From a virus (taxonomy: Duplodnaviria; Heunggongvirae; Uroviricota; Caudoviricetes): a stretch of 64,000 nucleotides of DNA. The notes below the pieces were generated by a model that did no database searches, was not told the origin of the DNA, and saw only the letters and a list, made by a program, of their open reading frames with translations. The stretch spans positions 1-64,000 of IMG/VR virus record IMGVR_UViG_2737471844_000002, one strand, 5' to 3'. Position numbers and translations under genes: made by a program. Below are positions 190 through 50,810 of the stretch, piece after piece; position 1 is the first letter of the stretch; each line of letters begins with the position of its first letter.

Positions 190-606
190 TCATTCGCTCC
201 CCTCTTTTTCCTTATTTCGTTGAACGCCAATTGCGACACACGTACTAAGCAAATCTTTACATTTCTCTACGTCTTCAGACTTACGCAATTTGATGCTTTT
301 TACAGACTGCGGGCTACTGTCCGTAGCACGATACATCGTTATTTCAATATCATTTCGGTCTAAGAGTCCCATAATGGCTTTTGCAACCTCCACACCCTTC
401 TTCGCGAAATCAAAGAACAGAGCAAGTTTATATGGATTTTCGACGGAAAAAACTTCAATTTTGCTAAAACCAACATCGTGTAGAGAAAAATATTGCTCAA
501 CCTCATCTCGAAGTTCTGGATCGCATACAATGTCTATTCTCCAGTACTGACCTAAATGCAAATCGCTATTAACTGTTTTTTCCACAACATCCTCCTTACC
601 CAGCAA
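190..606 (-). CDS. Hypothetical protein (138 aa), AT-rich, overlaps integrase stop by 11 nt
   Basis: Six-frame ORF; position between integrase 3-prime end and presumed attL; no recognisable motif. Confidence 0.45.
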   Translation of the reverse strand: MLGKEDVVEKTVNSDLHLGQYWRIDIVCDPELRDEVEQYFSLHDVGFSKIEVFSVENPYKLALFFDFAKKGVEVAKAIMGLLDRNDIEITMYRATDSSPQSVKSIKLRKSEDVEKCKDLLSTCVAIGVQRNKEKEGSE

Positions 607-1570
607 TAGGATTAAATCTCACCGCATCCTGCAAGTAATCCGGCGCAAGATGGGCATAAATCATCGTTGTCTGAATCTTTGCGTGCCCCAGAATTTTCTG
701 GAGCGTCAGAATATTGCCGCCGTTCATCATGAAATGACTGGCGAAGGTGTGGCGCAGCGCATGAACAGCCTGGCCGTCAGGAACATCAGGTGCGACCGTT
801 TTGATGACATCGCGAACCAATGGATAATCCAGCGTCGGAAACACCAGTTTCCCGCCCCGTTTTTTGATCTTTTCAAACAGGCTTTCAGAAATAGGAACGG
901 TACGGTTTTTGCTGTTCTTCGTTTTTGAAAAAGTGATTCGACAATGAAGAACACGGCGCTGCTCCAGTGCCGCTACCTCGCCCCATCGCGCCCCGGTCGA
1001 CAGAAGGATTTCGACAGCCAGCCGTTCATCGGGATTTTCAGCCAGTGCATCCAGCAACTGAACACATTCAGACTTACTCAGATATCCCATTTCGCGCTCG
1101 TTAACCTTCATTCCTTTAAGGCCTTGAACGGGGTTATCGTTAAGAAAATGGCCGGATGAGATGAGTGCGGTAAACATCGCGCTTAACGCCCCAATCTCTC
1201 GATTTATGGTGCTGGGCTGTATCCCCTGCTCTATCCTGGACACACGTAGCTCGGTGAGCATCGTTGTATTAAGTTTATGCACGCACGGGTCATCCATTGC
1301 CTCACTCAAGCGCAGCAATTTAAGGCGCGTGTTATGCCCAGACTTCATTAGCTGGCCGTGGTATTTCCACCACAAGTCAATAAGCACTGACAGCGGACGG
1401 CGATCAATAGAGTTTCCTTTCCACTCATTGTTATGCTGTTGCGCCAGCACCCACCGCTCATATAAAACTGCATCCGATTTCGTTTTAAATTTTTTACGAA
1501 TGCGTTTGCCTTTACGCCCCTCCGGGCGCATGTCAAGAAGATACCCTCCCGGAATTGATTTTATGCTCAT
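596..1570 (-). CDS. int: Tyrosine recombinase / phage integrase
   Basis: C-terminal HALRHTFAS...LGHAKIQTTMIYAHL motif typical of the tyrosine recombinase catalytic domain; start trimmed to internal Met (MSIKSIPGGY) to avoid overlap with the repressor ORF. Confidence 0.9.
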   Translation of the reverse strand: MSIKSIPGGYLLDMRPEGRKGKRIRKKFKTKSDAVLYERWVLAQQHNNEWKGNSIDRRPLSVLIDLWWKYHGQLMKSGHNTRLKLLRLSEAMDDPCVHKLNTTMLTELRVSRIEQGIQPSTINREIGALSAMFTALISSGHFLNDNPVQGLKGMKVNEREMGYLSKSECVQLLDALAENPDERLAVEILLSTGARWGEVAALEQRRVLHCRITFSKTKNSKNRTVPISESLFEKIKKRGGKLVFPTLDYPLVRDVIKTVAPDVPDGQAVHALRHTFASHFMMNGGNILTLQKILGHAKIQTTMIYAHLAPDYLQDAVRFNPIAG

Positions 1571-1619
1571 TCGTGAAACCCCAGCGTTACAAGGCCACCA
1601 TGCCCCCAGCGCTCCATGA

Positions 1620-1928
1620 TTAGCCGGGCTGTGTGCCAGTCTTGCGGGGTTTTTGAGAAGGCGATGTGCTTTTTGGCCCATCAGGGGAGAGAGACGGACT
1701 GATCTGCCCAGCAGCCTCATTTGTTTTTCCCGTCATAAGCCAATTCATGTACTTAAAAAAGCGAGGGTGATTAACAATCTTGATAAGCACTTCGCCCCCT
1801 ATGTTTTCAATCCGCCCCGTTTCATAACGACGCAAAGTGCCGATAGGCACATCAATCAGGCCGCAAAATTCTTCGCGCGTTAAATCCTCTGATTCACGAA
1901 TCACTCTAATTTTTTCACCGATAAGCAT
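1620..1928 (-). CDS. XRE-family HTH repressor (P2 C / 186 cI position)
   Basis: N-terminal HTH (IRVIRESEDLTREEFCGLIDVPIGTLRRYETG); divergent from the cox-like gene across an operator palindrome; start placed at internal Met MLIGEK. Confidence 0.7.
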   Translation of the reverse strand: MLIGEKIRVIRESEDLTREEFCGLIDVPIGTLRRYETGRIENIGGEVLIKIVNHPRFFKYMNWLMTGKTNEAAGQISPSLSPDGPKSTSPSQKPRKTGTQPG

Positions 1929-1940
1929 TGACAGTGTTCC

Positions 1941-1986
1941 TATAAGTACACTAAGCTTGCGCACAAGGTGTACTTATAAGTACACC
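1941..1986. promoter_or_regulatory. Operator: perfect 20-bp palindrome GGTGTACTTATAAGTACACC (1967..1986) plus half-site TATAAGTACAC (1941..1951)
   Basis: Read directly in the divergent intergenic region between the repressor and the cox-like gene. Confidence 0.5.
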
Positions 1987-2024
1987 AAGTCACAAACAAC
2001 CACAGATAGCGCAGGTTATCACAC

Positions 2025-2303
2025 ATGGCAAAAGTCCTGAACACACACGAACAGGCAGACTTTGAGCGTTTAGCAGCGTTCTATCCCTACCGCGATGAGC
2101 ATGGGTTACCAGTACTTGAAGAAAGCCTGAAAGATTACGCAAAGCGTACCAACCAAGCTGTTAACACAGTGAAAAGACAGGCTGACAGAGGTTTAATTCC
2201 CATCAACCAGGATGAAAAGAACTCAAGACGCACAGTAAATCTCTTCGCTCTTTTCCTGAAAACAATCAGGAGCGCAGAAAAATACGTGCAGATGACAAAA
2301 TAA
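2025..2303 (+). CDS. Cox/excisionase-like regulatory protein
   Basis: Position divergent from the repressor; loose resemblance to P2 Cox as I recall it (not verified). Confidence 0.5.
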   Translation: MAKVLNTHEQADFERLAAFYPYRDEHGLPVLEESLKDYAKRTNQAVNTVKRQADRGLIPINQDEKNSRRTVNLFALFLKTIRSAEKYVQMTK

Positions 2304-2317
2304 CGAGGTGTCATTTT

Positions 2318-2656
2318 ATGCTGAAGCAACGCCGTAATTTTCGTACCGGAACAGAACGCCACGCTAACCGTTTCACTACCAGTGCATCACGCAGCAACAT
2401 CCGCTACAGCCTGAGTGATACACACGCAACGCCGGATGGCTACCCAGTAAAACAAATCGGCGAGCACGCCTGGCTGATTGAGAAAGCTGGAATCGTGATC
2501 CACAAATGCCCACGCAATCCGTTTACCGGAAACCGCATTTTTGCATTGAGCTGTGGCGACAATCAGTTCGGGCAGGATTTCACATTATACGAAGCACTTC
2601 GCACGGTTGATCGTCTGCTTCGCGGGCAAAGTTTTATTAAACAGGCTGATTTATAA
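2318..2656 (+). CDS. Hypothetical early protein (112 aa)
   Basis: ORF in the co-directional early operon. Confidence 0.5.
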   Translation: MLKQRRNFRTGTERHANRFTTSASRSNIRYSLSDTHATPDGYPVKQIGEHAWLIEKAGIVIHKCPRNPFTGNRIFALSCGDNQFGQDFTLYEALRTVDRLLRGQSFIKQADL

Positions 2657-2666
2657 CAGGTGCTTT

Positions 2667-2954
2667 ATGACCAAAGACCATGCTCAGGGTGTATTTATCC
2701 GTTTTATTGATTTTCGCGGTGAACTGTTATTACGTGCATCCGCTATTGACGGAGTGACTCCGGCGGGTAAAAACGGAGCCGACGAAGCCACTTACGTTTA
2801 TCTGAACGGCACGCGACTGCTTGTGGAACTTCCGTACCAGACCGTACGAGAAATCATTAGCGAAGCTGAAAAGGCACGCCAGGTTAATGGCGATGAACCC
2901 TATATCGAAATTATTTGTATGGATTCAGAAGCTGAAATACAGAAAGCAGATTAA
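2667..2954 (+). CDS. Hypothetical early protein (95 aa)
   Basis: ORF trimmed to ATG at 2667 to avoid overlap with the previous gene. Confidence 0.5.
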   Translation: MTKDHAQGVFIRFIDFRGELLLRASAIDGVTPAGKNGADEATYVYLNGTRLLVELPYQTVREIISEAEKARQVNGDEPYIEIICMDSEAEIQKAD

Positions 2955-2962
2955 AGGGCGTT

Positions 2963-3208
2963 GTGATGGGCAAAGAATATAAAACTCTCATTAACAAAGC
3001 ACTTGAGCGTTTTTATTTTCGCTTAAGTGCATCAGGCGCTCATGCTGAACGTGCGGCCCGTGACTCATTGACCAGAGCAATCCGAAGTCTGTATGACGTG
3101 GCTTTTTATGCTGATGATCTGGATGCACTTAACGAACTTTCCGAGCTGATCTGTGCCGCAGAATGCGGGGAACATATTGAACCGTATAAGCTGGGAAATA
3201 TCGCATGA
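2963..3208 (+). CDS. Hypothetical early protein (81 aa)
   Basis: ORF in the early operon. Confidence 0.5.
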   Translation: MMGKEYKTLINKALERFYFRLSASGAHAERAARDSLTRAIRSLYDVAFYADDLDALNELSELICAAECGEHIEPYKLGNIA

Positions 3209-3342
3209 GTATATTTATCTCATGGCTTGTTCTGATTATTTCGGTGGTCTGCGCCATTGGGATTATGCGAATTATTAATTCAGTGAAAAAGATCGAGCGT
3301 TTTTCTCTGATGAATAACGATACAAATAAAACATCAAATTAA
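3205..3342 (+). CDS. Small hydrophobic peptide (45 aa, single predicted TM helix)
   Basis: ATG overlaps upstream stop (ATGA); MSIFISWLVLIISVVCAIGIMRII then a charged tail; AT-rich; below the ORF-track length cutoff. Confidence 0.35.
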   Translation: MSIFISWLVLIISVVCAIGIMRIINSVKKIERFSLMNNDTNKTSN

Positions 3343-3409
3343 ATAAGAAAACGTGAAAACCATCCGTATTAATGGAGGTATTCGCACGCGTAAATAACGG
3401 AGATATAAA

Positions 3410-3826
3410 ATGAAAGCAAAAGAAGAAGGCATTATCGACACATTAAAAAAAATATCAGAAGCGGAAGATGAAATGGCTAAAGATGCCGTGAAGCGTAGCC
3501 AACATATGGCAGCACTTCACGCACTGACCATTGCAAAAATCACCGCTGACGCAGCCAAAATTATTGAGGAACAGGGCAAAGAAATCGACACTCTTAAAAC
3601 ACAGTCAACAGTTGCAGCCATGAATCCGTCCAGCATTGGACGCCGCATTTACATTCTTGGTTCGGCAATAATGACGCAATACACCATTATTGCCGAACTG
3701 CACGGCAAATACCTGATAACGCCTTACCACACAAAAGAGTCAGAGCTTCTGACAAATCTCCGCCTGATAGAACGCTCTCAAGCTGTATTCATTGATGACG
3801 CGCAACGTGCCGTATTTAACGCATAG
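3410..3826 (+). CDS. Hypothetical protein (138 aa), AT-rich
   Basis: Long ORF with an A-rich purine run upstream; composition differs from its neighbours. Confidence 0.5.
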   Translation: MKAKEEGIIDTLKKISEAEDEMAKDAVKRSQHMAALHALTIAKITADAAKIIEEQGKEIDTLKTQSTVAAMNPSSIGRRIYILGSAIMTQYTIIAELHGKYLITPYHTKESELLTNLRLIERSQAVFIDDAQRAVFNA

Positions 3827-3849
3827 GGTTACTGGACAAAGGGGGCGCA

Positions 3850-4053
3850 ATGGCAATTAAGCATTTTCCCGTCGTTCGCTTTACCTCCAGAGGGCGCGAA
3901 TACGAGGTCGACGAACGCCTGATTACCACTATCGACAAACATCGTTCGGAAAAGGATGCACACCACATCTACCTCACTGACGGCACTTACTTCTGCGCCA
4001 CCAACGTGGCGCGAGTAAATCTTATCCGACAGGTACAGGAGCCACGCAGATGA
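3850..4053 (+). CDS. Hypothetical protein (67 aa)
   Basis: ORF overlaps the next gene by 4 nt. Confidence 0.45.
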   Translation: MAIKHFPVVRFTSRGREYEVDERLITTIDKHRSEKDAHHIYLTDGTYFCATNVARVNLIRQVQEPRR

Positions 4054-4316
4054 CCATTCTGGACTACATCGCTACTCATCCGGGGTGTAGCGGCGGAGAG
4101 ATCGCCGCAGCACTGAATACCCCAACCACAGCCATTAATGCTGAGTTACGCCGACTTTGGCGCGGCGGCTTAGTCATCAGAACAAACCGCAGCACAGGTG
4201 GTCGCGCTCGCAAAACAGGAGGCCAGGCTTCTTACCACGTAAACCCGATGCCGTTCGGGTGCGGCAATCCACTTACTCACATGTTTAACCAGCTACTGAA
4301 GGAAGCCAGAGCATGA
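4050..4316 (+). CDS. Small putative winged-helix DNA-binding protein
   Basis: ILDYIATHPGCSGGEIAAALNTPTTAINAELRRLWRGGLV resembles a wHTH. Confidence 0.45.
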   Translation: MTILDYIATHPGCSGGEIAAALNTPTTAINAELRRLWRGGLVIRTNRSTGGRARKTGGQASYHVNPMPFGCGNPLTHMFNQLLKEARA

Positions 4317-4612
4317 GCACCATCAACCACCAGAAGCTACGCGAACTGGCATTTGCCCTGCAACGAATGGCAACGCCTCAAAAATTACTGGCATTTCGCG
4401 CAATGCTCTCGCCGTCTGCTGTGCTGGCACTGCTGAATGAGCTGGAGCACGCCAGAACCACGGCTCCTGCCATTCGCCTGACGCTCCATCATGAAATCGC
4501 TGATTTCTGCGCGACGTTGGAGGCGCCGGGCGAACCGGAAACGCCGGAAGCAATACAGCAAGAGCTGCTGCAACGCATTGACAAGGTTTTTGATTTTTTT
4601 CTGAACCAGTAA
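4313..4612 (+). CDS. Ea22/Ead-like early protein
   Basis: N-terminal pattern QKLRELA...LLAFRAML.P..VLALLNELE, recalled as typical of lambdoid Ea22-like proteins. Confidence 0.45.
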   Translation: MSTINHQKLRELAFALQRMATPQKLLAFRAMLSPSAVLALLNELEHARTTAPAIRLTLHHEIADFCATLEAPGEPETPEAIQQELLQRIDKVFDFFLNQ

Positions 4613-4733
4613 GAAACCAGAACATGCACACACAAAAAAACCGCTTGCCATGCCGCAATCAGTCAGGTTACATTTCCGCTGCACCTCATAAAACGGGTGC
4701 CGGGATTTCCACCCCGCTGACAACTACAGCGCA

Positions 4734-4756
4734 CAACCGCGCCAGCGGTTTTTTTG
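4734..4756 (+). terminator. Possible rho-independent terminator
   Basis: AACCGC-GCCA-GCGGTT hairpin followed by TTTTTTT. Confidence 0.35.
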
Positions 4757-4934
4757 TGCGTACTGTATCGCCACGTCTTTTTCGCACACGAATTATGGTG
4801 GGGCGTACGGGGCCGACTTCGGTCGGGCCGGGTTCTGTAGTTGCCGGTTGTGGAAACCCTGTACGTCTCACCACCCCGAGTTTTCCACCTCTGGATGGTG
4901 AGTTTTCAAAACTTGCAACTACAGAGGCCACACC

Positions 4935-5165
4935 ATGGCAAACCGCAAACAGCACCGCGCTATCGCGGAGCGTCGTCACATCCAGACTGAAATCAACCGC
5001 AGACTTTTCCGCGCATCACGCGTCGCGCAAATCATGCACATCAATATGCTGCATGAGCGCAGCCACGCACTATCAAACATCTATTCCGCCGCTGTTTTCA
5101 GCTATCTGGCGGATGATCTGCACGAGCTTCAACAGCTCATCCAGCAGCAAAACAAACTCCATTAA
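4935..5165 (+). CDS. Hypothetical protein (76 aa)
   Basis: Six-frame ORF. Confidence 0.4.
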   Translation: MANRKQHRAIAERRHIQTEINRRLFRASRVAQIMHINMLHERSHALSNIYSAAVFSYLADDLHELQQLIQQQNKLH

Positions 5166-5237
5166 TTCCTGTTCCGGGCCTTTCCTGCACCTTGCGGCGG
5201 GAGGCCTTCGCACATCTGTAACAAGAGGATTGCCGCA

Positions 5238-5603
5238 ATGATTCTCGCCAACGACTTTATTGAATACCTGCTCAACACAGAACGTGATCTTGCCGCTCGC
5301 GTGCGTGAACGTTATGACATGTACCTGAAATCCCTGCCTGTACCGCAGCTCGCTGACGGAAAGATTGTTATTGATGGTCGCTACATGATTGACAGCCACG
5401 AGGGAAATTACAGGCTTTACCGCATTGAAGGTGGCACCCCGTCCGTTATTGGCATTTACCAGCGCCCATCCTCTGCAATCGTCGATGTGATTGCCGACAG
5501 CATCCGCATCACACATCGCCATGCCGACACAGAAGACACCGTGCTGGAAATTCAGCGGCTGGCTACAGTCTGCCGCGACACCCTGAATGGCATGACGAAG
5601 TAA
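5238..5603 (+). CDS. Hypothetical protein (121 aa)
   Basis: Six-frame ORF directly upstream of gene A. Confidence 0.5.
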   Translation: MILANDFIEYLLNTERDLAARVRERYDMYLKSLPVPQLADGKIVIDGRYMIDSHEGNYRLYRIEGGTPSVIGIYQRPSSAIVDVIADSIRITHRHADTEDTVLEIQRLATVCRDTLNGMTK

Positions 5604-5609
5604 ATCACT

Positions 5610-5866
5610 ATGACGGCAGAGTACATCAGGGACTGGCAACAACCGCGCCACGCAGTGGGGCGTGAAGGAACGGGGATCCCCGCTCCTGAATCCGCGCTTT
5701 CCTCCTGGCTGGATGCCTACCGGGCAGAGAACGAGCGCCGCCAGGAAATGGCTGATGCGGCGTTCTCCGCCACGCCGCTGGGCAACCTGATTAATAAAAG
5801 CCTGGACGCACAGGAAAAACAGGACAAAACCATCACACTGGCAGGAGACGCCAGAAAACAGACACG
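5610..5866 (+). pseudogene. A: Replication initiator gene A, 5-prime fragment, truncated by the Mu-like insertion
   Basis: The ORF reads in frame into the gene A body at 42741 once 5867..42740 is removed; its apparent stop (5874..5876) lies inside the inserted element. Confidence 0.7.
5862..5866. repeat. Target-site duplication ACACG, left copy
   Basis: Identical 5-mer at 42736..42740. Confidence 0.6.
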
Positions 5867-6022
5867 TGTGGGGTAGTGATCAATTCTGGACTGAGTGAGA
5901 ACAGCCTGGACGAGCCTATAAGCCTTGAGTGGCGCAGGATGTGAGAGATTTTACCGATTCTGGATCGTTTTGAAGAAAATGATCAAAAGTACATTTTTTT
6001 GCGCTCAAATCTGGACTGTTTT
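5867..6022. repeat. Left end with three repeats of core TCTGGAYYG (5884..5893, 5958..5967, 6008..6017): candidate transposase binding sites
   Basis: Repeats read directly; spacing reminiscent of Mu L1-L3 as I recall it. Confidence 0.5.
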
Positions 6023-6171: not shown

Positions 6172-6819
6172 TCATGCTGATTTTTTACTTACAGATTTTG
6201 TTTCTTGCTCCGGTGTGACATCGGTCTGATCACCCGGCGATTGTGGTCGTATATGAGATTCAACAATTCGCAAAATCTCTCTGTCAGTATCTTCGTTTCC
6301 ATGTAATGCTACTCGGATTGCATCCTTAAGTGATTTCCTGATATTCAGACTTTGGATAGCATTCTCTTGCTCCTCCAGCGTGTTAGCGGCTTGTTTCGCT
6401 TGCCTAGTGGGTTGTTGCAGACGTTTTAGGATTCCTTTGATACCCATATCACATATTGCATTTATCAATAGTTCTTTATCTTCTGTGGACGCTCTTTTCA
6501 ATAACTCGTTAGCTAGCTCGTTTGTAATATCGGGAGAAGGCTGCGCTGTTTGGTTTGATAAAGAGTTTGCTGTGGCGGTGAGTTCCTCACCATAAGCGAG
6601 CCAATTTAAACTCACCTGCTCTTTATCTGAGATAAGGCAGGCTATTTTAAAAGAGGGTTCTGTTCCTTTATGGATGTAGTTGTTTAAGGTTGAAGGAGGG
6701 ATACCCCAGTCGCTCGCGGCAGTTCTGACACTGCGCCCACCTATTAGTTTTACTAAACGCTCTCTAAAACTTTCTTTTCCTCGGTCAACTAAAGAAAAAG
6801 CGTCATCATTTTTTGTCAT
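6172..6819 (-). CDS. Mu c-like repressor (DNA-binding)
   Basis: Leftmost gene, divergent from ner; RBS AGGAAAGGA before ATG at 6819; SVRTAASDWGIPPSTLNNYIHKG...VSLNWLAYGE resembles a phage repressor HTH. Confidence 0.6.
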   Translation of the reverse strand: MTKNDDAFSLVDRGKESFRERLVKLIGGRSVRTAASDWGIPPSTLNNYIHKGTEPSFKIACLISDKEQVSLNWLAYGEELTATANSLSNQTAQPSPDITNELANELLKRASTEDKELLINAICDMGIKGILKRLQQPTRQAKQAANTLEEQENAIQSLNIRKSLKDAIRVALHGNEDTDREILRIVESHIRPQSPGDQTDVTPEQETKSVSKKSA

Positions 6820-6952
6820 TTTTCCTTTCCTATTTAACCAATTGATTTTCAATCACAAAACCATATAAAGACCAAAAGCAAAAAGAAAATACAAAGAAAA
6901 GGCTATTTTTGCTTTACATGGGTTACATATGGATCAATACTTATATCCGAAG

Positions 6953-7001: not shown

Positions 7002-7238
7002 ATGATGGTTAGAAATGAAGTAATGAACCTGGACTGGCACCGCGAGTACATTGTCGCAGCTGTGCACACCAAAGGTTTTACATTGCGTGAACTTTCTGAA
7101 CGCGCTGGTCTAAAAAAAGACTCTTTAAAAAATGCACTGTATCGCTCATGCCCTAAATATGAACGCATCATAGCCGATGCTATTGGTGTGGAACCTGCGG
7201 AGATCTGGCCAAGCCGGTATGCCAGTAAGGCGGCATAA
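7002..7238 (+). CDS. ner: Ner-like DNA-binding protein
   Basis: DWHREYIVAAV...LRELSERAGL...ADAIGVEPAEIWPSRY closely matches the Mu Ner / Nlp family as I recall it. Confidence 0.85.
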   Translation: MMVRNEVMNLDWHREYIVAAVHTKGFTLRELSERAGLKKDSLKNALYRSCPKYERIIADAIGVEPAEIWPSRYASKAA

Positions 7239-9280
7239 TGTTTTATTCAGCCAATGAACTGGCCGGTCTTACTGGTTTGCCCGGTACAGTTCAGGGGGTG
7301 CGCTGGACGCTCAATCGGATCACAGAGACGCACCCGGAATGGAAGCGCAAGCGTGAAGGCACCAAAGCATTCGAGTATCACATCGACTGCCTGCCCGCTG
7401 AAGCGCAGAAGGTTTTACGTAAGCGCCTGACTCATCAGGTTCTGGAAGATGCGCAACTGCCCGCCGTGGTTGAGCAGAAGGCAGTTAAGAACGTCACCAT
7501 TCGCGATGAACTGGAAGTGATGGTCAAATGCCCGGAGCTGGCATTACGCGAAGTTCAGGCACTGACCGACAAGCAAAAGGCCATCGCTGATGCGCGGATA
7601 TTGCTGGCTACCGAAGTGCATAAACTGCGTGAATACGCAGGAATGTCCAGGACGGCAGCGATAAAACACATTGTTGATGGTATCCGCCAGGAGGCTTTGC
7701 CCGAGCGCGTTATTGTGGCAGGTAATACCGCCAATGCCCGACAGGGTAAGCGAACTGGCGTCAGTACAGGGAGTTTACAGGAATGGTATTCCGCCTGGCT
7801 GATGGCGCGCGGTGATGCCAATCAGTTACTGGCGTTACTGTCCCCCGGTCATCATAAGGGGACACCGTGGGAGCAGGTCTGGTGGTTGAGCGATTTCTTT
7901 ATGTTCTATCGCTCATGGAAGCGCCCGACTGTTGAATATGCGTATCGTGAGTTTTCAGTCTGGTGGCATGAAAAACACGCGAATGATGCGGGAATGCTGG
8001 CGGCACTGCCTTCAGTTCACGCAGTAAGACGGGTGTTAAGCAACGTCCCGGTGATTGTTAAGGAGCGTTTCCGCTCCACCGGTTCAGCCTGGCGTTCGCT
8101 CAATCCCTTTGTGCGGCGCGACTGGAGCACATTACCGGTTAATGCGGTATGGGTCGGGGATGGTCACTGTATGAAAATGACCGCGTTTAACCCCCTGACC
8201 GGCAATATTTTCCGGCCAGAGGTGACGCTGGTTATGGATGCGGGGCAGCGCTTTGTTGTGGGCTGGTCACTGTCCCTGTCGGAAAACGTGATAGCCGTTG
8301 CTGATGCGCTGCGTCATGGCATGTCACAGCACGGGATACCGCTGATTTATTACTCCGATAACGGGGGCGGCGAAAAAAACCGGGTGCTTGATGCCGATAT
8401 TACCGGGATTTTGCCCCGGCTGGGTGTGGAGCATCACACGGGGATACCAGGTAACCCACAGGGGCGCGGGGTGATTGAAAGGCTTAACAAGGAAATTCCC
8501 CGGGATGTGGCCCTGAGTTTCCAGACGTACTGCGCAAGGGATGCAGACAAGGAAACCGTAATGATGCAGCAACGGATTATGCAGTCAGCCATTAAGGCCA
8601 CCCACAAAGGGAAAGAACTGACAAAACGGCAGGTTAAGGCGAGGGATGAAATCCCCACCTTTGAGCAACTGATGGCAGCCATAGAGCTGGAGGTCAGACG
8701 CTATAACAACCGGCCACACAGCAGCCTACCCCGCAAAGAGGATGGCGAATATTACAGCCCGGCAGCGTATCGCCGGAAACTGATAAAAGAGCAGAATGTT
8801 GAAATTGATTTCCTGTCGCCGGAAGAACTGCATGAAATGTTCAGGCCGGAAGTGACGCGCAAAACATTTCGCGGGGAAATTCAGTTATTCAACAATATTT
8901 ATTACTCATATGATCTGGCCGCAGAGCACGGGAATGAAGTCAGGGTCAGTTACGATATTCATGATGCAAACAGCGTCATTGTCCGGCGGGCTGATGGCTC
9001 TTATATCTGCGATGCCATCTGGAACGGTAACAAGGTTGATGCCTTCGCTAAACCAGTTATCGAACAAAAACTGGAGAAACGCGTCAGGGGCCGCATTGCA
9101 CGGGCCACGCAGAAAATCGAAGAGGCTAAACGCGAGCTTACCCCGGCTATTACGCAGAAGCCTGACTTTAATCTGGGATATAGACTGGAGCGCCCGGAGA
9201 AAAAGGAAAAAGAAGAACTTTATTTATTCGCATCTGAACGCGAGCGCAATTTAAAGAAAAACGGCACAAACAACCGTTAA
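7238..9280 (+). CDS. A: Mu-type DDE transposase (MuA-like)
   Basis: 680 aa, directly after ner and before the AAA+ B protein; Mu transposase domain organisation. Confidence 0.9.
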   Translation: MFYSANELAGLTGLPGTVQGVRWTLNRITETHPEWKRKREGTKAFEYHIDCLPAEAQKVLRKRLTHQVLEDAQLPAVVEQKAVKNVTIRDELEVMVKCPELALREVQALTDKQKAIADARILLATEVHKLREYAGMSRTAAIKHIVDGIRQEALPERVIVAGNTANARQGKRTGVSTGSLQEWYSAWLMARGDANQLLALLSPGHHKGTPWEQVWWLSDFFMFYRSWKRPTVEYAYREFSVWWHEKHANDAGMLAALPSVHAVRRVLSNVPVIVKERFRSTGSAWRSLNPFVRRDWSTLPVNAVWVGDGHCMKMTAFNPLTGNIFRPEVTLVMDAGQRFVVGWSLSLSENVIAVADALRHGMSQHGIPLIYYSDNGGGEKNRVLDADITGILPRLGVEHHTGIPGNPQGRGVIERLNKEIPRDVALSFQTYCARDADKETVMMQQRIMQSAIKATHKGKELTKRQVKARDEIPTFEQLMAAIELEVRRYNNRPHSSLPRKEDGEYYSPAAYRRKLIKEQNVEIDFLSPEELHEMFRPEVTRKTFRGEIQLFNNIYYSYDLAAEHGNEVRVSYDIHDANSVIVRRADGSYICDAIWNGNKVDAFAKPVIEQKLEKRVRGRIARATQKIEEAKRELTPAITQKPDFNLGYRLERPEKKEKEELYLFASERERNLKKNGTNNR

Positions 9281-9298: not shown

Positions 9299-10192
9299 AT
9301 GAGTTTAATTACGCAATTAAATGACGTAATGGCCCGTCGCGGCTTTACGCAGACCCACGTTGCCCGTGCTATTGGTCGTAGCAGCGCCGTTATCAACCAG
9401 TATTTGCAGGGCAAATATCAGGGCGATATGGCTGATATTGAAGAACGCATTTCTGCCTTTGTGACCCGTGAGCGGGAAAAGGAAAACAGCCGCCGTATTA
9501 AAGCGAAATTTGTTGCCACCGGTATGGCTGCCAAAGGACTGGAAGTGCTGGCCTATGCTCACCTGGAATGTGAAATCTGCGTACTGTATGGCGCGGCAGG
9601 TCTTGGCAAAACAATGATTCTGCGTGAATACGCCGCCAGAAACCGGGATGCGGTCCTGATTGAAGCTGACCCGGGCTATACAGCCAGAACACTGCTTGAG
9701 GAGCTGTGCCGCCAGCTGGGGGTAAAAGTTCGCGGCAATATCCACGAACTGATTGATGCATGTGTGCGAGAACTGCGTGATTCCGGTCGCCTGCTGATGG
9801 TGGACGAGGCTGAACTGCTCCCCTATCGCGCACTGGAGGTTCTGCGCCGTCTGCATGACAAAGCGGGTATCGGGATTGTCCTGGCGGGTATGCCACGCCT
9901 TCTGATTAACCTCAAGGGACGTCGCGGTGAGTTCGCCCAGTTATACAGCCGTGTGGCGCTGGCGCTTAACCTGGGTGATACGCTGGCGCAGGAAGATTTT
10001 AACCAGATAGCCACCGGGCTGATGCCGGAAGCAGCAGAGCCGGAAATCAGCGAGGCGCTTTATACACGTTCGCTGGGTAATGCCCGCCGCCTGTTCAAAC
10101 TGGCGCGTGGTGTGTACCGGATTTGTGATATCAGCGATGCGCCGGTCAGTGTGCAGGCCATTGATAAATTCGCAGAAATGTTAATTCACTGA
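9299..10192 (+). CDS. B: Transposition ATPase (MuB-like, AAA+)
   Basis: Walker A GAAGLGKT, Walker B LLMVDEAE, N-terminal HTH. Confidence 0.9.
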   Translation: MSLITQLNDVMARRGFTQTHVARAIGRSSAVINQYLQGKYQGDMADIEERISAFVTREREKENSRRIKAKFVATGMAAKGLEVLAYAHLECEICVLYGAAGLGKTMILREYAARNRDAVLIEADPGYTARTLLEELCRQLGVKVRGNIHELIDACVRELRDSGRLLMVDEAELLPYRALEVLRRLHDKAGIGIVLAGMPRLLINLKGRRGEFAQLYSRVALALNLGDTLAQEDFNQIATGLMPEAAEPEISEALYTRSLGNARRLFKLARGVYRICDISDAPVSVQAIDKFAEMLIH

Positions 10193-13887: not shown

Positions 13888-14506
13888 AGTTAACTATCAG
13901 GCACTGCGTGAGGTGGCAGAGGCCGCGAAGGGGGATACGACGTGGCAGAACCTACAGGCTTTTCATGCTGCGGCTACGCCGGAGGTTGTGCAGGCGTTGC
14001 TGGATGAAAACGAAAGACTGTGTCGAGATCTGATAGCTCGTAATGGTGAGATTGAAGGGCTTCGGGAGTGGGCAGAAGAACTGGAGGCACGGGAGGTGGC
14101 TTTGCCAGTAGCGTCATGCATTGTTGAAGATGGATGCATGTGTGTTGATGGGTTCAGTGAGTATGTAGGTCACTCGCTGCCTGATGGAATGCATGAGCTT
14201 TATGCTGCCCCGCCAGCGCCCGTAGTGCCTGCATCACTGGAATCAGAGCCGGTGGCGTGGACTGATGAAGAGGAACTGCGCGATGTCAAGCAGTATGGTC
14301 TCGGTGAGATATTTCAGTACCCGCCAGATAAATACGCAGACTCGCGTCGTGTAATCCCGCTGTATCGCGAGCTGCCAGTGCCGGTAGTGCCGGATGAAAT
14401 GTATTGGCAGGATGCGCCAGTTGAAGGCAGCAGCAAAGCTGCTGCATACGCTACAGGTTGGAACGCTTGCCGCGCTGCCATGTTTAAAGGAAAAGGAGGT
14501 GCGTAA
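13880..14506 (+). CDS. Ea22/Ead-like protein
   Basis: NYQALREVAEAA...WQNLQAFHAAATPEVVQALLDENERL. Confidence 0.5.
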   Translation: MSEVNYQALREVAEAAKGDTTWQNLQAFHAAATPEVVQALLDENERLCRDLIARNGEIEGLREWAEELEAREVALPVASCIVEDGCMCVDGFSEYVGHSLPDGMHELYAAPPAPVVPASLESEPVAWTDEEELRDVKQYGLGEIFQYPPDKYADSRRVIPLYRELPVPVVPDEMYWQDAPVEGSSKAAAYATGWNACRAAMFKGKGGA

Positions 14507-14678
14507 TGCGTGTCGCGTTTATCGGTTTATTACCATACCCGACTCGTTTTTGGGCTTCTGCGTTAATGACAAAGCCGCATGTCCTGATGGCTGACAGCAT
14601 CATCCCTGCACCGAAACGCCGTACAGGCATTGCGGCGGCGAGACGAGCAGCAAAGAAACGCAGGAGAACAAAACGATG
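14506..14678 (+). CDS. Small hypothetical basic protein (57 aa)
   Basis: ATG overlaps upstream stop (TAATG); below the ORF-track cutoff. Confidence 0.3.
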
Positions 14679-15175
14679 AAAAACCGTAAGGCAAAAATTC
14701 TGTTAGCTCGCAGAAACGGTGTTGGGGTCTGGCGATGGTTGAGGATTAGTAACAGACGAGTGAGGTTGACGGGGTGTTGCGGGGTGATGTTGTACAGCTG
14801 TTGCAAAAAGCCCAGCGCGGCGCAAAACCGCTGGAAGAATCACACTAACGCAAAGTAATTAAATAATAACCAATAACAGACCAAAACATATGTTTTGGTC
14901 TGCCAAAAGTGATGTTTTGGTCATTATGAAGATTGAACAAATCGGAATGGCAGCTTTCAGGCAACAGGCTGAAAGCGGTGGCGTGGATGAGTTCGTCGTG
15001 CAGCGGTTCAGTGGTGTGTATCACCTCTTCGCTGTGAATCGCCGCGCCGGGGTGTCCTATTTTCTACAGGAACGCCGTGGCGATTACAAGACGTGGCTGT
15101 CTCTTGACCGTGCCGCCGCGTTCCTGTCAGGGATTGGCGTTTCACGTTTTACCGTGCGTTTTGAGGATAATAAAC

Positions 15176-15574
15176 ATGCTGAAAAAGATGATCGGGGCCA
15201 TTAAAGCCGGTCAGGCGTATCTGGGGTGGGATGATGCCCTTTATCGCCAGACGCTGGCCCGCCTGACAGGTAAAACAAGCACCACACGCTGCAACCTCGA
15301 TGAACTGCGCATCATCCGGGAATACATGCACGAACAGGGATTTCCGCGCAAAGCGCCCGCCGGTAAAGGTCGCCGCCCCCGTGTTGCAATGAGCAGAAAA
15401 TCAGTATTATCCAAAATTGAAGCGTTGCTGGCTGATGCCGGTCGTTCCTGGGTGTATGCGGAAGGACTGGCATCTCACATGTATAAGCAACATGTGATCG
15501 AATGGCTGACAGATGATCAGCTGTTTGGGGTGATGGTGGCGCTGGTAAAAGATTCAAGAAGGAGAAATCAATGA
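15176..15574 (+). CDS. GemA-like protein (Mu gp16 family)
   Basis: Position before the Mor-like gene; family assignment from memory. Confidence 0.45.
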   Translation: MLKKMIGAIKAGQAYLGWDDALYRQTLARLTGKTSTTRCNLDELRIIREYMHEQGFPRKAPAGKGRRPRVAMSRKSVLSKIEALLADAGRSWVYAEGLASHMYKQHVIEWLTDDQLFGVMVALVKDSRRRNQ

Positions 15575-16074
15575 TGAAAAAATGGTTGTTTTGTTTAGTA
15601 GGGGTTATTTTATCTTTTCCTGCAGCGGCTGAATGGTACGCAGGTGTACAGGAAGATGCATTCAACGAACAAAAAACAGCTATGCTGGTTGAGTTAGATA
15701 ATGGTCGCTTTGGTGTTGTTTTTGATTGCAACAGTGATGGTTTATTCGTATCAGTTGTAGAAAAATCAAAGAAAACTGAAAGTGTAACCAAAGAGCTTCC
15801 CGTTGATCTAATTTTCAGGATAGATAACCACCCAGCAGTGAAAATGACTGGGGTATTTACACGACGAAATGAAAATTTGTACGGGTATAGATCGGATGAT
15901 GCCAGTAGCATCAAGGAATTGTTATCTTACTTACGTAAAGCAAATGATCGTATTTTAGCCGGTGCTAAATTTTCTGATGAAAAAAGAGGGATATCGTTTG
16001 ATATCACGCCAATCGGCTCCACATCAGGTGTTAATAAATTCATCAAAGCCTGTAACATCACGATTCCAGAGTAA
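15571..16074 (+). CDS. Secreted/periplasmic protein of unknown function (signal peptide), AT-rich cargo gene
   Basis: N-terminal MMKKWLFCLVGVILSFPAAAEW looks like a signal peptide; composition visibly AT-rich; followed by a strong terminator. Confidence 0.6.
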   Translation: MMKKWLFCLVGVILSFPAAAEWYAGVQEDAFNEQKTAMLVELDNGRFGVVFDCNSDGLFVSVVEKSKKTESVTKELPVDLIFRIDNHPAVKMTGVFTRRNENLYGYRSDDASSIKELLSYLRKANDRILAGAKFSDEKRGISFDITPIGSTSGVNKFIKACNITIPE

Positions 16075-16084
16075 CCTAATAGCC

Positions 16085-16110
16085 GCCCCTGCCATGCAGG
16101 GGCTTTTTTT
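16085..16110 (+). terminator. Rho-independent terminator
   Basis: GCCCCTGC-CAT-GCAGGGGC hairpin followed by TTTTTTT. Confidence 0.7.
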
Positions 16111-16173
16111 GTGGTCTGTACAGGCGATCATGTATGGCTATAATAACAGTAAGTTACTACCGGAGACGCCATC

Positions 16174-16641
16174 ATGCAGACCTTCAGTGAAACAGATCTT
16201 CGCGATGCACAGGCACTGCTACCCGATTCCGTGCAGCAACTGATTAGCGTGATTGGCTTCCCCGCCCTGACCCGGTTAATCCGTTCTTTTGGTGGCGTGA
16301 CGTTAAGCGGTAAAACCGGCGCACACGCCGAACGCACCGGCGGTGTCCATGCCCTGTTACATGACGTGCTGACCGAAGACGAAATCAACAAACTGATCCG
16401 CTTTCTTGGCGGTGCGCCGTTTTATATTCCCCGTTGCGATCATGCGTTACGTGCCCTGCGTAACTCCCGTTTTATGGCTGATTTACAGCAACATATAAAA
16501 GGCGGATGCTCACACCGGCAGGCGCTGGCACTGCTTTGTCCACGTTACGGAATTTCAGACCGGTACGCATGGCAACTGATACACCGACGACAAAAACAGA
16601 CTTCGCTGAAAAGCCCCACCCAGGTGGGGCTTTTTGATTAA
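16174..16641 (+). CDS. Mor-like middle-operon transcriptional activator
   Basis: Mor/C family pattern FYIPRCDHALRALRN..., C-terminal HTH-like region, position before the lysis/late genes. Confidence 0.6.
   Translation: MQTFSETDLRDAQALLPDSVQQLISVIGFPALTRLIRSFGGVTLSGKTGAHAERTGGVHALLHDVLTEDEINKLIRFLGGAPFYIPRCDHALRALRNSRFMADLQQHIKGGCSHRQALALLCPRYGISDRYAWQLIHRRQKQTSLKSPTQVGLFD
16613..16635 (+). terminator. Rho-independent terminator overlapping the 3-prime end of the Mor-like gene
   Basis: GCCCCACC-CA-GGTGGGGC hairpin followed by TTTTT. Confidence 0.55.
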
Positions 16642-42649: not shown

Positions 42650-42735
42650 ATTTTGCGCTTTATTCTGGATTTTTTTTATTATGTCAACCGTTCAAAATAA
42701 AGCGCTAAATAGTCCAGAAAAAATCGCGAAGTTAC
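42650..42735. repeat. Right end of the Mu-like element with inverted copy of the terminal motif (AGTCCAGAA at 42711..42719)
   Basis: Reverse complement of the right terminus matches the left terminus in register at 17 of 26 positions when the right terminus is taken as 42736. Confidence 0.5.
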
Positions 42736-42740: not shown

Positions 42741-45291
42741 CGGCGCGGTGGATGAAGCCATGGCCTCGCTGCGCCTGCTGCCGTCCTATCTGCGCGATCC
42801 GCTTATTCGCCACCTCTCCTTCCTTCGCAAAAAACAGGAAGCCGATCGCCGGAAAGGCAAAAAGAGCTGGCAGGCGGAACGCTATGCACGCGGAACCCTG
42901 CGCAAAATATTCGAACGTCTGGATCGCACTGACGGACGCTGGCTGACACCGGGTTATCGCTCCCTTGCCGGACGCGAACGCCTGGACGATTTGCTTTACC
43001 TGCCGCAGCTCAACAAACACCAGATACAGACGTTGGCCACCATGACGGCGGCGATGTTCAGCAGCACCTTCGAAAAGCTCTGCGATGGCTTTGGCGCCAG
43101 AGATGGCGAGCTGACCATGGATGTAATGTTGAAGGCTTACCGGATGCTGGCTCGTATCGCATTACGCCTGCACATCATGCCGCCACATTACGAAGCCCTG
43201 AACAAGAGCGAACCGGATACGGAACTGCTGCCGGGCGCAATCCTTCGCCTGACCTGTGCGGACTGGTGGAAACGCAAACTGTGGCTGTTACGTTGCGAGT
43301 GGAGAGAAGAACAACTCCGCGCCGCCTGTCTGGTTTCCAGAAAAACATCGCCTTATCTGAGCCAGGACGCGTTAAGCGAGTTTCGCGCACAGCGCGAGAA
43401 AACACGCGATTTCCTGAAAAGTTTCATGCTGGAAAACGAAGACGGGTTCACGATTGATCTCGAGACAGTGTATTACGCGGGAGTAAGTAACCCGGTTCAC
43501 CGTAAGGCAGAAATGATGGCCACCATGAAGGGGCTGGAACTTCTGGCCGAAGCCCGTGGTGACAAAGCGGTGTTTCTGACTGTCACCTGCCCGTCAAAAT
43601 ACCACGCAACAACGGAGAACGGTCATCCGAATCCCAAATGGAACGGGGCCACCATGCGCGACTCCAGCGATTACCTGGTTAACACGTTTTTTGCGGCGGT
43701 CCGCAAGAAACTGAACCGCGACGGCCTGCGCTGGTATGGCATCCGCACGGTGGAGCCTCACCATGACGGCACCGTGCACTGGCATATGATGGTCTTTGCC
43801 CATCCGGAAGAAATCGACACCATTGTGTCCCACACCCGCGATATTGCCATTCAGGAAGATCGTCACGAGCTGGGCGATGATATTACTCCGCGCTTTAAGG
43901 CGGAGTATGTCGACGGCTCAAAAGGCACGCCAACCAGCTACATCGCCACCTACATCGGAAAAAACCTGGACAGCCGCGCCGTGGATGGCATCGCCCCGAA
44001 AACAGGCAAACCACGCGTTGACCACGAAACCGGAAAATCAATGGCCGAGAGCGTGGAGCGCGCCATCGGCTGGGCGCGCCTTCACCGGGTCCGCCAGTTC
44101 CAGTTCTTTGGCATCCCCTCCCGTCAGGTGTGGCGTGAACTGCGCCGCCTTGCCAGCCAGATGGCACGCAACCCGGAAGGCCCGCAACGGCTGAAGGACG
44201 ACGCAATGGATGCGGTACTCGCTGCCGCTGATGCCGGGTGTTTTGCCTCCTACATTGAAAAACAGGGTGGCGTACTTGTTCCACGCAAGGACTACCTGAT
44301 TCGCACCGCCTACGACCTCGCAGATGAGCTGAACGATTACGGCGAACAGAGCGTACAGATTTACGGGATCTGGTCACCACTCATCGGGGAATCCTCCCGT
44401 GTGTGCACGCACCCGGATAACTGGAAGCTGGTAAGACGTAAACCGGAAGCGGAAGACAGCGCCCGCGAAAATTGTTTTGACCTTCAGGGCGGCCCTGCCG
44501 CCCCTTGGACTCGTGGCAATAACTGTCCCCGTGTACAGGAAACGGACAACAACGGGACAGAACAGCCGGAAGAACGGCCAGCACCGTGGCCGCAGCTTCC
44601 TGACGGCGTTGATGTGGATGAATGGATGCGCTCACTGAAACGGCACGAACGCCGGGCGCTGATGCGTTCGCTGCGTGACAAACAGGCCAAAAACAGCAGT
44701 GATGAAATGCAGAACTGGACACAGAGCCGCAAACAGCCACAGCCTTTGCCTGATAAACACGAATTACTCGCTAAAGAATGGCGGGAGTCTGCCGAATCTC
44801 TCGGCCTGCATATCGGTGAACAGCAGATGCAGCACCTGTTACGGGGCGGCAGCCTGTACGTTGACGGCAGCATCATTGCACCGCAGGGATTTGAAATTGT
44901 ACGCAAACCGGATACCCGCCCGGACAGCCGAATCACGCAGCTCTGGCAGCGCCTGAGCCGTAATCACGGCGTAAGCAGCACGGAGATCCGCCATAACCCG
45001 GTCGCCAGCTATCTGGCACAGCTCGGGGCATCAGACCCCGAAGCCGCCGCACGCCTGGCATCCACACTTCAGCAGGACCAGAACACCATGAAAACACCCG
45101 TTACCGTGCTTTCTGACATGCTGCGCGCCATTCGTGACGCAGAGCACGCACAGAGAATCAGTGAAACCACTGAACACGCCCGCCGCAAAGCAGACCTGCT
45201 GCGGGGTAGCCTGACCAGTGGCAACAAAAAACAGACAGAAACGGGATTCACAAATCCCGCAAATGAGCAAAAAACGCGCCGCGATATATGA
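42741..45291 (+). pseudogene. A: Replication initiator gene A (P2 gpA-like rolling-circle endonuclease), 3-prime part separated from its 5-prime end by the Mu-like insert
   Basis: TVTCPSKYH and VEPHHDGTVHWHMMVF motifs match my recollection of P2 gpA; frame continuous with 5610..5866. Confidence 0.8.
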
Positions 45292-45367
45292 AGCGCGCAC
45301 AAAACAGGCGAAAGCGGGATTTAAAAATCCCGTAAACGGTTAATTAACCAACATAAGGAAAATCGAC

Positions 45368-46327
45368 ATGAAAATTTGTATCGACGACGGCTCCACCAAC
45401 ATCAAGCTGGCATGGACTGAAAACGGCGAACGCCGCAACGCCATCAGCCCGAACAGCTTCAAGTCGGAATGGTCTGCGCCGTTCGGTGGCTCGCAGCCTG
45501 CGAACTACATGCTTGATGGCGTGCGCTATGGTTTTGATCCGGTCAGCGATCGCTTTGTCCAGACGACCGACACGCAATACCAGTACAGCGATGTGAATGT
45601 CATTGCCATTCATCACGCGCTGGTCAAATCAGGCATCACGCCACAGGAAGTGGATGTTGTTGTCACCCTGCCACTGAGCGAATATTTCGACACTAACGCC
45701 CAGCCGGACATGGCCAACATCAACCGCAAAAAAGCGAACGTTATGCGCCCGGTGGAGTACCAGAACGGTGAGGCATTCACTATCCGTAACGTGCGGGTTA
45801 TGCCTGAATCCATTCCGGCTGGCTTTAAGGCACTGGCTGACATGAGTCCGTTTGAATCCCTGCTGATTGTGGATTTGGGCGGAACCACGCTGGATGTGGC
45901 AAAGGTTCAGGGGCAACTGGCAGGTATCAGCCAGGTGTTTTGCGATCCACACGTAGGCGTTTCTCTGATGGCCGATGCCGTACTGTCGGTGATGGCCACT
46001 AACGGTATGCGCACCAGTCACCACATAGCCAATACCATTATCGAACATCGCCATGATGAAGCCTGGCTGCGCCAGCACATCCACAATGACGCGCATTACG
46101 CCAGCCTGATGGCGGTTATTCGTGAAAAGGAAGAAACACTGAAACAACGTGTTATCCGCGCGCTGGCGGTTTTTTCGGGTTACGGGCGGGTGATGGTTGT
46201 CGGTGGAGGGGCGGAGATTGTGGCACCCGCTATCCGCGAAGCCTGCGGAGTTAATGCGACTTTCATCGCGGACGGGGTGCCACAGTTTGCTCTGGTTAAT
46301 GGGCTGTACGCAATGGACAAGGAGTAA
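45368..46327 (+). CDS. parM: ParM/StbA-like actin-type partition ATPase
   Basis: IDDGSTNIKL...ISPNSFK.EW...QYSDVNVIAIHHAL..SG....EVD...TLPL matches ParM/StbA as I recall it. Confidence 0.75.
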   Translation: MKICIDDGSTNIKLAWTENGERRNAISPNSFKSEWSAPFGGSQPANYMLDGVRYGFDPVSDRFVQTTDTQYQYSDVNVIAIHHALVKSGITPQEVDVVVTLPLSEYFDTNAQPDMANINRKKANVMRPVEYQNGEAFTIRNVRVMPESIPAGFKALADMSPFESLLIVDLGGTTLDVAKVQGQLAGISQVFCDPHVGVSLMADAVLSVMATNGMRTSHHIANTIIEHRHDEAWLRQHIHNDAHYASLMAVIREKEETLKQRVIRALAVFSGYGRVMVVGGGAEIVAPAIREACGVNATFIADGVPQFALVNGLYAMDKE

Positions 46328-46331
46328 ACCA

Positions 46332-46643
46332 ATGACGACTCCAACCAGACGGATAAGTTTCTATCTGAAGCCCACCGCCGTCAAGAACGAAGGAGAAGCA
46401 TGCGCCTGGCTGGACAGCCTTACACCAGAAGCCCGCAAAAGCGGCCAACGCGTGGCTTTTCTGGCCGGGCTGGCACTTCTGAAAATGAATCCGGCAGAGG
46501 CTTACCGACTGGCTGCATGGGCTGATGATGAGGTGTTATCAGTGACACAAACCAAGACAGAACGCCCCGCGTCACAGCCAGTATCAACCGCACAGATAAC
46601 CAGTCAGATGGCCGGAAATATCCGGGCGTTATTTCCTGAATAA
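46332..46643 (+). CDS. ParR/StbB-like partition adaptor candidate
   Basis: Small protein 4 nt after the parM-like gene. Confidence 0.4.
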   Translation: MTTPTRRISFYLKPTAVKNEGEACAWLDSLTPEARKSGQRVAFLAGLALLKMNPAEAYRLAAWADDEVLSVTQTKTERPASQPVSTAQITSQMAGNIRALFPE

Positions 46644-50305: not shown

Positions 50306-50312
50306 TTTTTAT

Positions 50313-50334
50313 GGCCGCGAAAGCGGCCTTTTTT
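50313..50334 (+). terminator. Rho-independent terminator after the peptidase gene
   Basis: GGCCGCGAAAGCGGCC hairpin followed by TTTTTT. Confidence 0.7.
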
Positions 50335-50787: not shown

Positions 50788-50810
50788 AAGCAGCAGACAA
50801 GCGAAGCGCG

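Follow-up and report, generated by a model that had tools for sequence, protein, structure and literature searches.

Small phage-encoded proteins that are exported to the envelope and cause superinfection exclusion include T4 Sp (spackle), T4 Imm, T5 Llp and phi80/N15 Cor. Proteins with an IalB domain have likewise been described in papers as envelope or periplasmic proteins, one of which was essential at the growing pole of Sinorhizobium. Phage morons have been defined as single genes that are present or absent between conserved genes and that deviate in composition, and regions of genomic plasticity have been described in Mu-like phages of Pseudomonas (PMC4378225). Here, we analysed a 64,000-nt stretch of viral DNA (positions 1 to 64,000 of IMG/VR record IMGVR_UViG_2737471844_000002, hereafter called the window), in which an open reading frame (ORF) of 167 amino acids (aa) with an ATG start fills a variable slot between gemA and mor (slot ORF, 15571..16074, + strand). 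Accessory genes that phages carry in variable regions are a kind of element that is already known. The protein family itself has not been studied before, and our literature search found no paper that mentions either PHROG 19473, the family to which the slot protein belongs, or any of the slot proteins by accession number.

We propose that the slot ORF is an exchangeable accessory cassette in a recombination hot spot of a Mu-like transposable Escherichia prophage, an explanation to which, taken as a whole, we give a probability of roughly 60%. The cassette would sit between gemA and the terminator and promoter that precede mor, and would be transcribed as the last cistron of an orf92-gemA unit without a promoter of its own. 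Translation would proceed via a Shine-Dalgarno sequence in the last codons of gemA and a start codon that overlaps the gemA stop (ATGA), and the transcript would end at a backbone terminator that is also present in prophages with an empty slot. The product would be exported by the Sec pathway and cleaved by signal peptidase I after AAA, leaving a mature domain of 147 aa that is predicted to fold in an IalB-like manner and that may act by binding an envelope component rather than as an enzyme. The benefit would probably lie in shielding the envelope of the carrier cell from outside attack, the leading idea being exclusion of other phages in the way of T4 Sp or T5 Llp.

The position of the slot ORF between a GemA-like and a Mor-like gene, as given in the initial annotation, was borne out by profile matches of both neighbours. 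On the left, gemA (gp16 family, 132 aa; 15176..15574, + strand, its start set from homologous annotated coding sequences (CDSs)) matched Pfam GemA with E 1.5e-17; on the right, the mor-family late activator gene (16174..16641, + strand) matched Pfam Mor with E 1.1e-6 and PHROG 836 (late activator) with E 1e-42. The slot ORF was also AT-richer than its neighbours, as had been noted: its GC content was 0.379, compared to 0.524 for gemA and 0.534 for mor, and its GC content at third codon positions was 0.32, compared to 0.55 and 0.53, respectively. Among all 504-nt windows of the 64 kb (mean 0.532, sd 0.056), the slot ORF fell into the lowest 0.8%. It is opposed by a 200-aa ORF on the opposite strand (15312-15914). 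We consider the slot ORF real, since its protein matched PHROG 19473, has a family of 218 representatives and yielded a high-confidence structure model. The hidden Markov model (HMM) match to PHROG 19473 covered the full length (E 2.2e-53, residues 4-165 on profile positions 7-167 of 167) and establishes membership, which gives no functional information because this PHROG is without annotation (unknown function).

The content of the slot varied among close relatives. With a query that consisted of the two flanks only, the gemA-mor junction was found in 58 of the 5,426 complete E. coli genomes searched, and slot states were assigned from the span between the flanks together with four annotated examples (strains E2348/69, C5, STEC313 and M8). 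Nothing was present between the flanks in 19 genomes (C5 type), while 23 carried a gene for a 158-aa protein (E2348/69 type), 11 a gene for a 112-aa protein with a weak Sel1-like repeat (STEC313 type) and 5 a gene for a 174-aa homologue that was 34% identical to the window protein (M8 type). The window allele itself occurred in none of the 58 junction-bearing genomes; the same two conserved genes of close relatives enclosed no gene (19 genomes) or one of three other genes (39 genomes). The initial annotation had taken the ORF for a phage-carried accessory gene and had named carriage by all related Mu-like phages, as a conserved core gene, as the outcome that would speak against this; not all carry it, and in nearly identical Mu-like prophages the slot is either empty or taken up by unrelated genes.

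DNA of the mature domain had no match in the 5,426 complete genomes, in which only the first 52 nt of the gene were matched (23 genomes). In draft assemblies, 106 blocks contain the exact window protein, which sits between GemA and Mor in the four places listed. Two further alleles, P0002 (80% identity) and P0003 (57%, from E. marmotae), fill the same gemA-mor slot with the same coupling. Among the deposited phage genomes of INPHARED, tblastn found no match to the slot protein, and the sole DNA match was a 43-nt element outside the gene (14801-14843). This element also matched P1, RCS47, Stx2c-converting phages, a Yersinia phage and others at 95-100% identity, and most of the matches of a wider query to 444 E. 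coli records, many of them plasmid-borne, are probably due to it.

Slot genes were far more divergent than the DNA around them. Nucleotide identity between prophages was 93-98% in the gemA and mor flanks, compared to 80, 69 and about 54% for slot genes, and synonymous divergence (dS) was 0.09-0.20 in the flanks and at least 1.09 (saturated) in the slot. The ratio of nonsynonymous to synonymous divergence (dN/dS) in the slot was 0.10-0.31; the slot protein is under purifying selection. Saturated dS in the slot next to low dS in the flanks, together with these dN/dS values, points to old, selected alleles that were swapped by recombination, and the slot alleles thus appear to be ancient and exchanged rather than products of fast divergence in place. 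Left of the slot, alignment of five slot states showed that conservation with other states stopped about eight codons before the gemA stop, and on the right it resumed at the terminator hairpin. Compared to the unrelated E2348/69-type gene, the window gene was identical over its first ~43 nt and 94% identical over its first 52 nt, after which there was no similarity; the 158-aa protein of E2348/69 (L001 2258-2734) opens with the same signal peptide, MMKKWLFCLVGVI, as that encoded at window positions 15571-15622. This abrupt loss of similarity after shared 5' codons suggests that one recombination boundary lies inside the signal-peptide codons.

Judged from sequence signals, the slot gene is predicted to be the last cistron of the orf92-gemA unit and to be translationally coupled to gemA. 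Its ATG (15571-15573) overlaps the TGA of gemA (15572-15574), and the coupling signals (15560..15574, + strand) consist of AGGAG at 15560-15564 within the last codons of gemA, a 6-nt spacer and ATGA; the same AGGAG/ATGA arrangement was seen with P0002, P0003 and the E2348/69-type gene. Given this overlap and the location of the Shine-Dalgarno sequence inside gemA, the slot gene would be expressed whenever gemA is. A consensus scan found no promoter-like site between gemA and the slot ORF. The conserved orf92-gemA-slot unit begins with a candidate sigma-70-type promoter, ATCACA-17-AATAAT (9/12; 14839..14867, + strand), and in relatives with divergent upstream DNA conservation began at its -10-like ATAATAACCA. 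Between this site and orf92 lies a perfect 26-bp palindrome, CAGACCAAAACATATGTTTTGGTCTG (14877..14902), with a further half-site, ATGTTTTGGTC, at 14912-14922. The palindrome was kept in E2348/69 (three substitutions), M8 and STEC313, and the aligned C5 and E. marmotae segments end inside it; it is possibly the operator of the orf92-gemA unit. The motif TTTTGGTCTG, considered as a repeated operator, was rejected as it was not enriched in the window (8 found vs 4.7 expected). The first cistron, orf92 (14926..15204, + strand), encodes a hypothetical protein without a Pfam match, overlaps the gemA start and is an annotated CDS in E2348/69, C5, STEC313 and M8. The promoter-like site, the palindrome and the onset of conservation at the -10-like box suggest that orf92, gemA, the slot gene and the terminator form one unit. 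Expression of the gem operon of Mu is said to be constitutive, going by the title of a 1992 paper by Paolozzi and Ghelardini that is cited in PMC3820752.

Downstream of the slot ORF we found the strong hairpin with an 8-bp GC-rich stem and seven T residues that had been reported there: an intrinsic terminator on the + strand, GCCCCTGC-CAT-GCAGGGGC (8 pairs, 7 of them G-C, with a 3-nt loop; 16085-16103), followed by T7 at 16104-16110. The terminator (16085-16110) was top-listed among 16 terminator-like sites in a 10-kb scan, and a 46-nt stretch containing it had a folding energy of -18.4 kcal/mol (z = -2.3 vs shuffled sequences). The same hairpin was present in the window, in E2348/69, in M8 and in the empty C5 slot, where it directly follows gemA; a C-to-T change in C5 keeps a G.U pair, and one loop base varies (A/G/T). 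Only STEC313 had a different hairpin and T-run, at the same position. Since a terminator ends the unit whatever the slot holds, even nothing, it would belong to the operon or backbone and not to the slot gene. The claim that the gene has its own terminator thus did not hold, the same hairpin and T-run being found after an unrelated slot gene, after a distant homologue and after gemA in the empty slot. Elsewhere in the family, a hairpin with a T-run stood close behind some copies and was missing behind others. The right boundary of the slot was invariant: a sigma-70-like promoter before mor, TGTACA-16-TATAAT (10/12; 16117..16144, + strand), was found within a segment running from GGTCTGTACAGGCG (GACTGTACAGGCG in M8) through the TATAAT box to the mor ATG, which was identical across five slot states. 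Across window positions 16085-16173, a strong terminator thus leads straight into a sigma-70-like promoter. The early transcript of Mu itself has mor as its last gene. A LexA box in the mor promoter region was ruled out on reading the sequence, and a search of 14400-16400 with Rfam returned no RNA family. Overall, the picture of a self-contained expression unit had to be corrected to that of a gene that would ride on the gemA unit, which determines when the protein can act.

The N-terminal signal peptide claimed in the initial annotation was upheld by its n/h/c layout and by family conservation. Residues 1-20 (15571..15630, + strand) are a predicted Sec (signal peptidase I) signal peptide, with the charged n-region MMKK, the hydrophobic core WLFCLVGVILSF and the c-region P-A-A-A. 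This layout agrees with the rules for such signals (a positively charged n-region, an h-region of 10-15 residues, small residues at positions -3 and -1 and no lipobox), and cleavage would occur at AAA|EW, after residue 20. Among the 80 aligned family members, 78 have AxA followed by an invariant Trp within 0-2 residues. A lipoprotein was ruled out, as no lipobox is present and W-L-F precedes Cys8. Confidence in the structure model of the slot protein was lowest in the signal-peptide segment. Every kind of slot occupant (4/4) begins with a signal-peptide-like N-terminus.

A word-indexed protein search, even with profiles, reached only 7-8 close relatives, i.e. a handful of Escherichia proteins. 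An exhaustive HMM search of 1.84 billion protein representatives recovered 218 family representatives with an E-value of at most 1e-3 (96 with at most 1e-10); almost all of them are about 165 aa long and match end to end. Those with names are all called hypothetical protein and come from Salmonella, Enterobacter, Ewingella, Yersinia, Musicola, Pantoea, Morganella, Sodalis and Zymobacter. In an 80-member alignment, Trp22 and Cys53 were invariant and Asp85, Asn100, Gly131 and Cys161 near-invariant, and the cleavage site was followed by the motif W-x-T-x-V-E-D-D-x-F-S. The mature periplasmic domain (147 aa plus stop; 15631..16074, + strand) is mainly beta-strand and contains the conserved Cys53 and Cys161. 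AlphaFold2 with the 80-member alignment gave a mean predicted local distance difference test score (pLDDT) of 91.7 and a predicted template modelling score (pTM) of 0.85, with nine strands and two helices, compared to a pLDDT of 76.7 with only eight sequences. On this model, the mature domain is predicted to be a compact, mainly beta-strand, IalB-like fold with two helices, and the protein resembles IalB in fold. Pfam IalB (PF06776) gave no match for the window protein, the 80 members (E up to 1) or 10 distant members (E up to 10), so homology to IalB was unconfirmed by sequence methods and the predicted resemblance is one at the level of fold.

Further searches for a functional relative were negative. 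PADLOC (E up to 1) had no match for the window protein, three other slot proteins and two homologues, and a fold search of BFVD gave only weak matches, to uncharacterised phage proteins. Three fusion proteins were considered as functional clues. The capsid fusion P0088 and the CHAP fusion P0127 were set aside, as they look like a gene-call artefact and a low-complexity match, respectively. The metagenomic P0068 (L023 244-1137) is a real fusion of the family domain to a C-terminal YfjT-like domain (BLASTP E 1e-7); it is also the only member that scored on Pfam IalB, below threshold (18.7 bits vs a cut-off of 22.1, E 0.002). YfjT is an uncharacterised protein of the E. coli K-12 cryptic prophage CP4-57, and hhalign found no relation between YfjT and the slot-protein family.

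Envelope protection against incoming phages, i.e. superinfection exclusion, is the role that we tentatively prefer, although we consider it less likely than not. This preference stems from the analogy with exported exclusion proteins, the moron-like distribution of the gene and the apparent export of every slot occupant. Protection against periplasm-acting toxins is less likely than protection against incoming phages. For a type VI immunity protein, an adjacent cognate effector gene would be expected; no effector gene lies beside the slot gene in the window, and a toxin-immunity pair was found beside one homologue only. No gene co-occurs consistently with family members, which suggests that the slot protein works by itself or together with a partner from the host.

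Several points count against the proposed explanation. No homology ties the family to any function, and searches of Pfam, NCBIfam, PADLOC and PDB sequences with the window protein or the 80-member alignment gave nothing above noise. The signal peptide was judged by n/h/c rules and family conservation rather than by SignalP, and it is only by inference that Cys53 and Cys161 form a periplasmic disulfide and that the protein is soluble in the periplasm. The empty slot could have arisen from a deletion that left the terminator of a cassette behind, so that assigning the terminator to the backbone describes its present function and not its origin. In addition, 3 of about 13 genomic contexts examined were chromosomal and not phage-like (a metagenome contig by aroA/cmk, Musicola paradisiaca by the hut genes and Yersinia kristensenii after dusB-fis), and because of such chromosomal members the family need not have a phage-directed role.

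Members in phage-like contexts were found at a variety of sites. In Salmonella Mu-like prophages a member occupies the same gemA-mor slot, and in two IMG/VR Mu-like contigs it lies just upstream of gemA. Others were found after the tape-measure gene in myovirus tail modules, near AntA/RecT in a lambdoid early region, after the lysis cassette of a Pantoea lambdoid prophage and on the strand opposite to a P2-like tail operon. In a P2-like prophage of Zymobacter sp. (L011 6001-7494), a member lies downstream of the repressor and is followed by genes for a Tae4 amidase effector and its Tai4 immunity protein, a toxin-immunity pair carried as prophage cargo.

The alternative that survives best, although we consider it rather unlikely, is that the slot gene is a moron of the classical lysogenic-conversion type, an independent unit that is expressed while the prophage is repressed and that alters the host, either by conferring immunity to periplasm-acting toxins (type VI amidases, colicins, lysozymes) or through an IalB-like interaction with host cells. 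The AT-rich composition fits such a gene, as does the constitutive expression in lysogens that is reported, by that title, for the gem operon of Mu, and the candidate promoter and palindrome upstream of orf92 mean that the whole unit could be on in lysogens; the lack of a promoter between gemA and the slot ORF, a start codon that overlaps the gemA stop and a terminator that occurs without the slot gene argue against an independent unit. Among relatives, the member that opposes the tail operon must have its own promoter there, and chromosomal members exist. The Zymobacter member is on the same strand as the upstream repressor and next to Tae4/Tai4, but this neighbourhood is a single case in which Tai4 already serves as the immunity protein. 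Likewise, the predicted fold resembles that of IalB, but there is no membership in IalB at the level of sequence and the molecular function of IalB itself is unknown.

A role in the phage's own lytic cycle appears quite improbable. Here, the protein would be made before the lysis genes and would act in the periplasm to modulate the timing of lysis or the endolysin/holin system. The slot gene does lie two genes upstream of the holin/endolysin cassette, both in the window and in the Salmonella relative, and the Pantoea member comes just after a lysis cassette. One third of near-identical prophages nevertheless have an empty slot and others carry unrelated proteins in it, other family members lie far from lysis genes, in tail modules, in early regions and at chromosomal sites, and no similarity to antiholins, spanins or endolysin regulators was found. 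In a draft-genome copy of the same prophage (L020 4495-5640), the second holin and the GH108 endolysin, which in the window come after the first holin, are missing, and this copy may be a lysis-defective derivative.

That the ORF is a passenger without current function, such as an AT-rich recombination fragment or a mis-called ORF, is very improbable, since the gene's rarity (found in none of the 5,426 complete E. coli genomes searched) and want of a known function are set against dN/dS of 0.10-0.31 at saturated dS, 218 full-length representatives with conserved motifs and two conserved cysteines, a confident fold model, and a ribosome-binding site (RBS) and coupling that are intact in several alleles.

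Returning to the exchangeable cassette, we also considered whether the gemA-mor slot might be a dedicated exchange site for periplasmic effectors, in which the resident RBS, about 15 signal-peptide codons and the fixed terminator would serve as homology arms between which unrelated mature domains are swapped. This extension is suggested by the window and E2348/69-type genes, which share the first 43-52 nt and the terminator with nothing between, and by the signal-peptide-like starts of all four known occupants; we regard it as doubtful. If it were true, one phage lineage would carry alternative envelope-targeted proteins in cassette-like fashion, e.g. with different exclusion or immunity specificities.

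The wider window confirmed a Mu-like transposable prophage, with a CI-type repressor (6172-6852, - strand), a Mu-type transposase (7238-9280) and a MuB-like ATPase (9299-10192), as well as DUF3164, a holin and a GH108 endolysin. This prophage is apparently inserted inside a P2-like prophage (window positions 596-5900 and 42748-53608). To its left are a tyrosine integrase (596-1720) and an Ash-family gene, and to its right a P2 GPA replication gene (42748-45291) and P2-type portal and terminase genes (50811-53608, - strand). Repeated TTCTGGA(C/T) motifs near 5880-6010 and 42660-42720 resemble transposase-binding ends. The P2-like part also contains a ParM-like gene (45368-46327) and a low-GC pair of genes, for an AAA ATPase with a C-terminal helix-turn-helix (47022-48104) and a 734-aa S8 subtilase (48101-50305); position and composition suggest that 45368-50305 is a further accessory cassette, possibly one for defence.

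The accessory genes that temperate phages carry are a main source of strain differences in phage resistance and envelope properties, and they are mostly unannotated. Because Mu-like prophages that are nearly identical differ at a single position, where at least four different exported proteins or none may be encoded, an isogenic comparison could assign a phenotype to this uncharacterised, mostly prophage-borne family with its predicted IalB-like fold. Such a phenotype might also shed light on the role of the IalB fold. We consider two features of the locus modestly unusual, namely that signal-peptide codons and terminator apparently serve as shared boundaries of exchange, and that an IalB-like fold is predicted to occur in phages.

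Compared to phage morons such as lambda bor and lom and to the regions of genomic plasticity of Pseudomonas Mu-like phages (PMC4378225), the slot gene is alike in its presence/absence pattern and in a base composition that deviates from the adjacent genes; it differs in that it apparently has no promoter of its own, is coupled to an upstream core gene and is followed by a terminator common to all slot states but one. IalB proteins (Pfam PF06776, COG5342; PDB 3DTD) are small envelope proteins with a signal peptide, as the slot protein is predicted to be, but identity to the slot protein was 9%, and neither the window protein nor 89 other members gave a significant sequence or profile match. IalB-domain proteins are, moreover, chromosomal in Hyphomicrobiales and not phage-borne, and the resemblance predicts location rather than mechanism. 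A chain of the Vibrio sodium-driven flagellar motor (PDB 8z5n_A, LPHT-ring structure), which from our own reading of the entry we take to be probably the N-terminal domain of MotY, was 12% identical; it is a 270-residue chain, in contrast to the single domain of the slot protein, and no flagellar genes lie near the slot. To the superinfection-exclusion proteins T4 Sp, T4 Imm, T5 Llp and phi80/N15 Cor, the slot protein showed no sequence or detected fold similarity, and Llp and Cor are lipoproteins, whereas the slot protein has no lipobox; what it has in common with all of them is a small size and a signal peptide.

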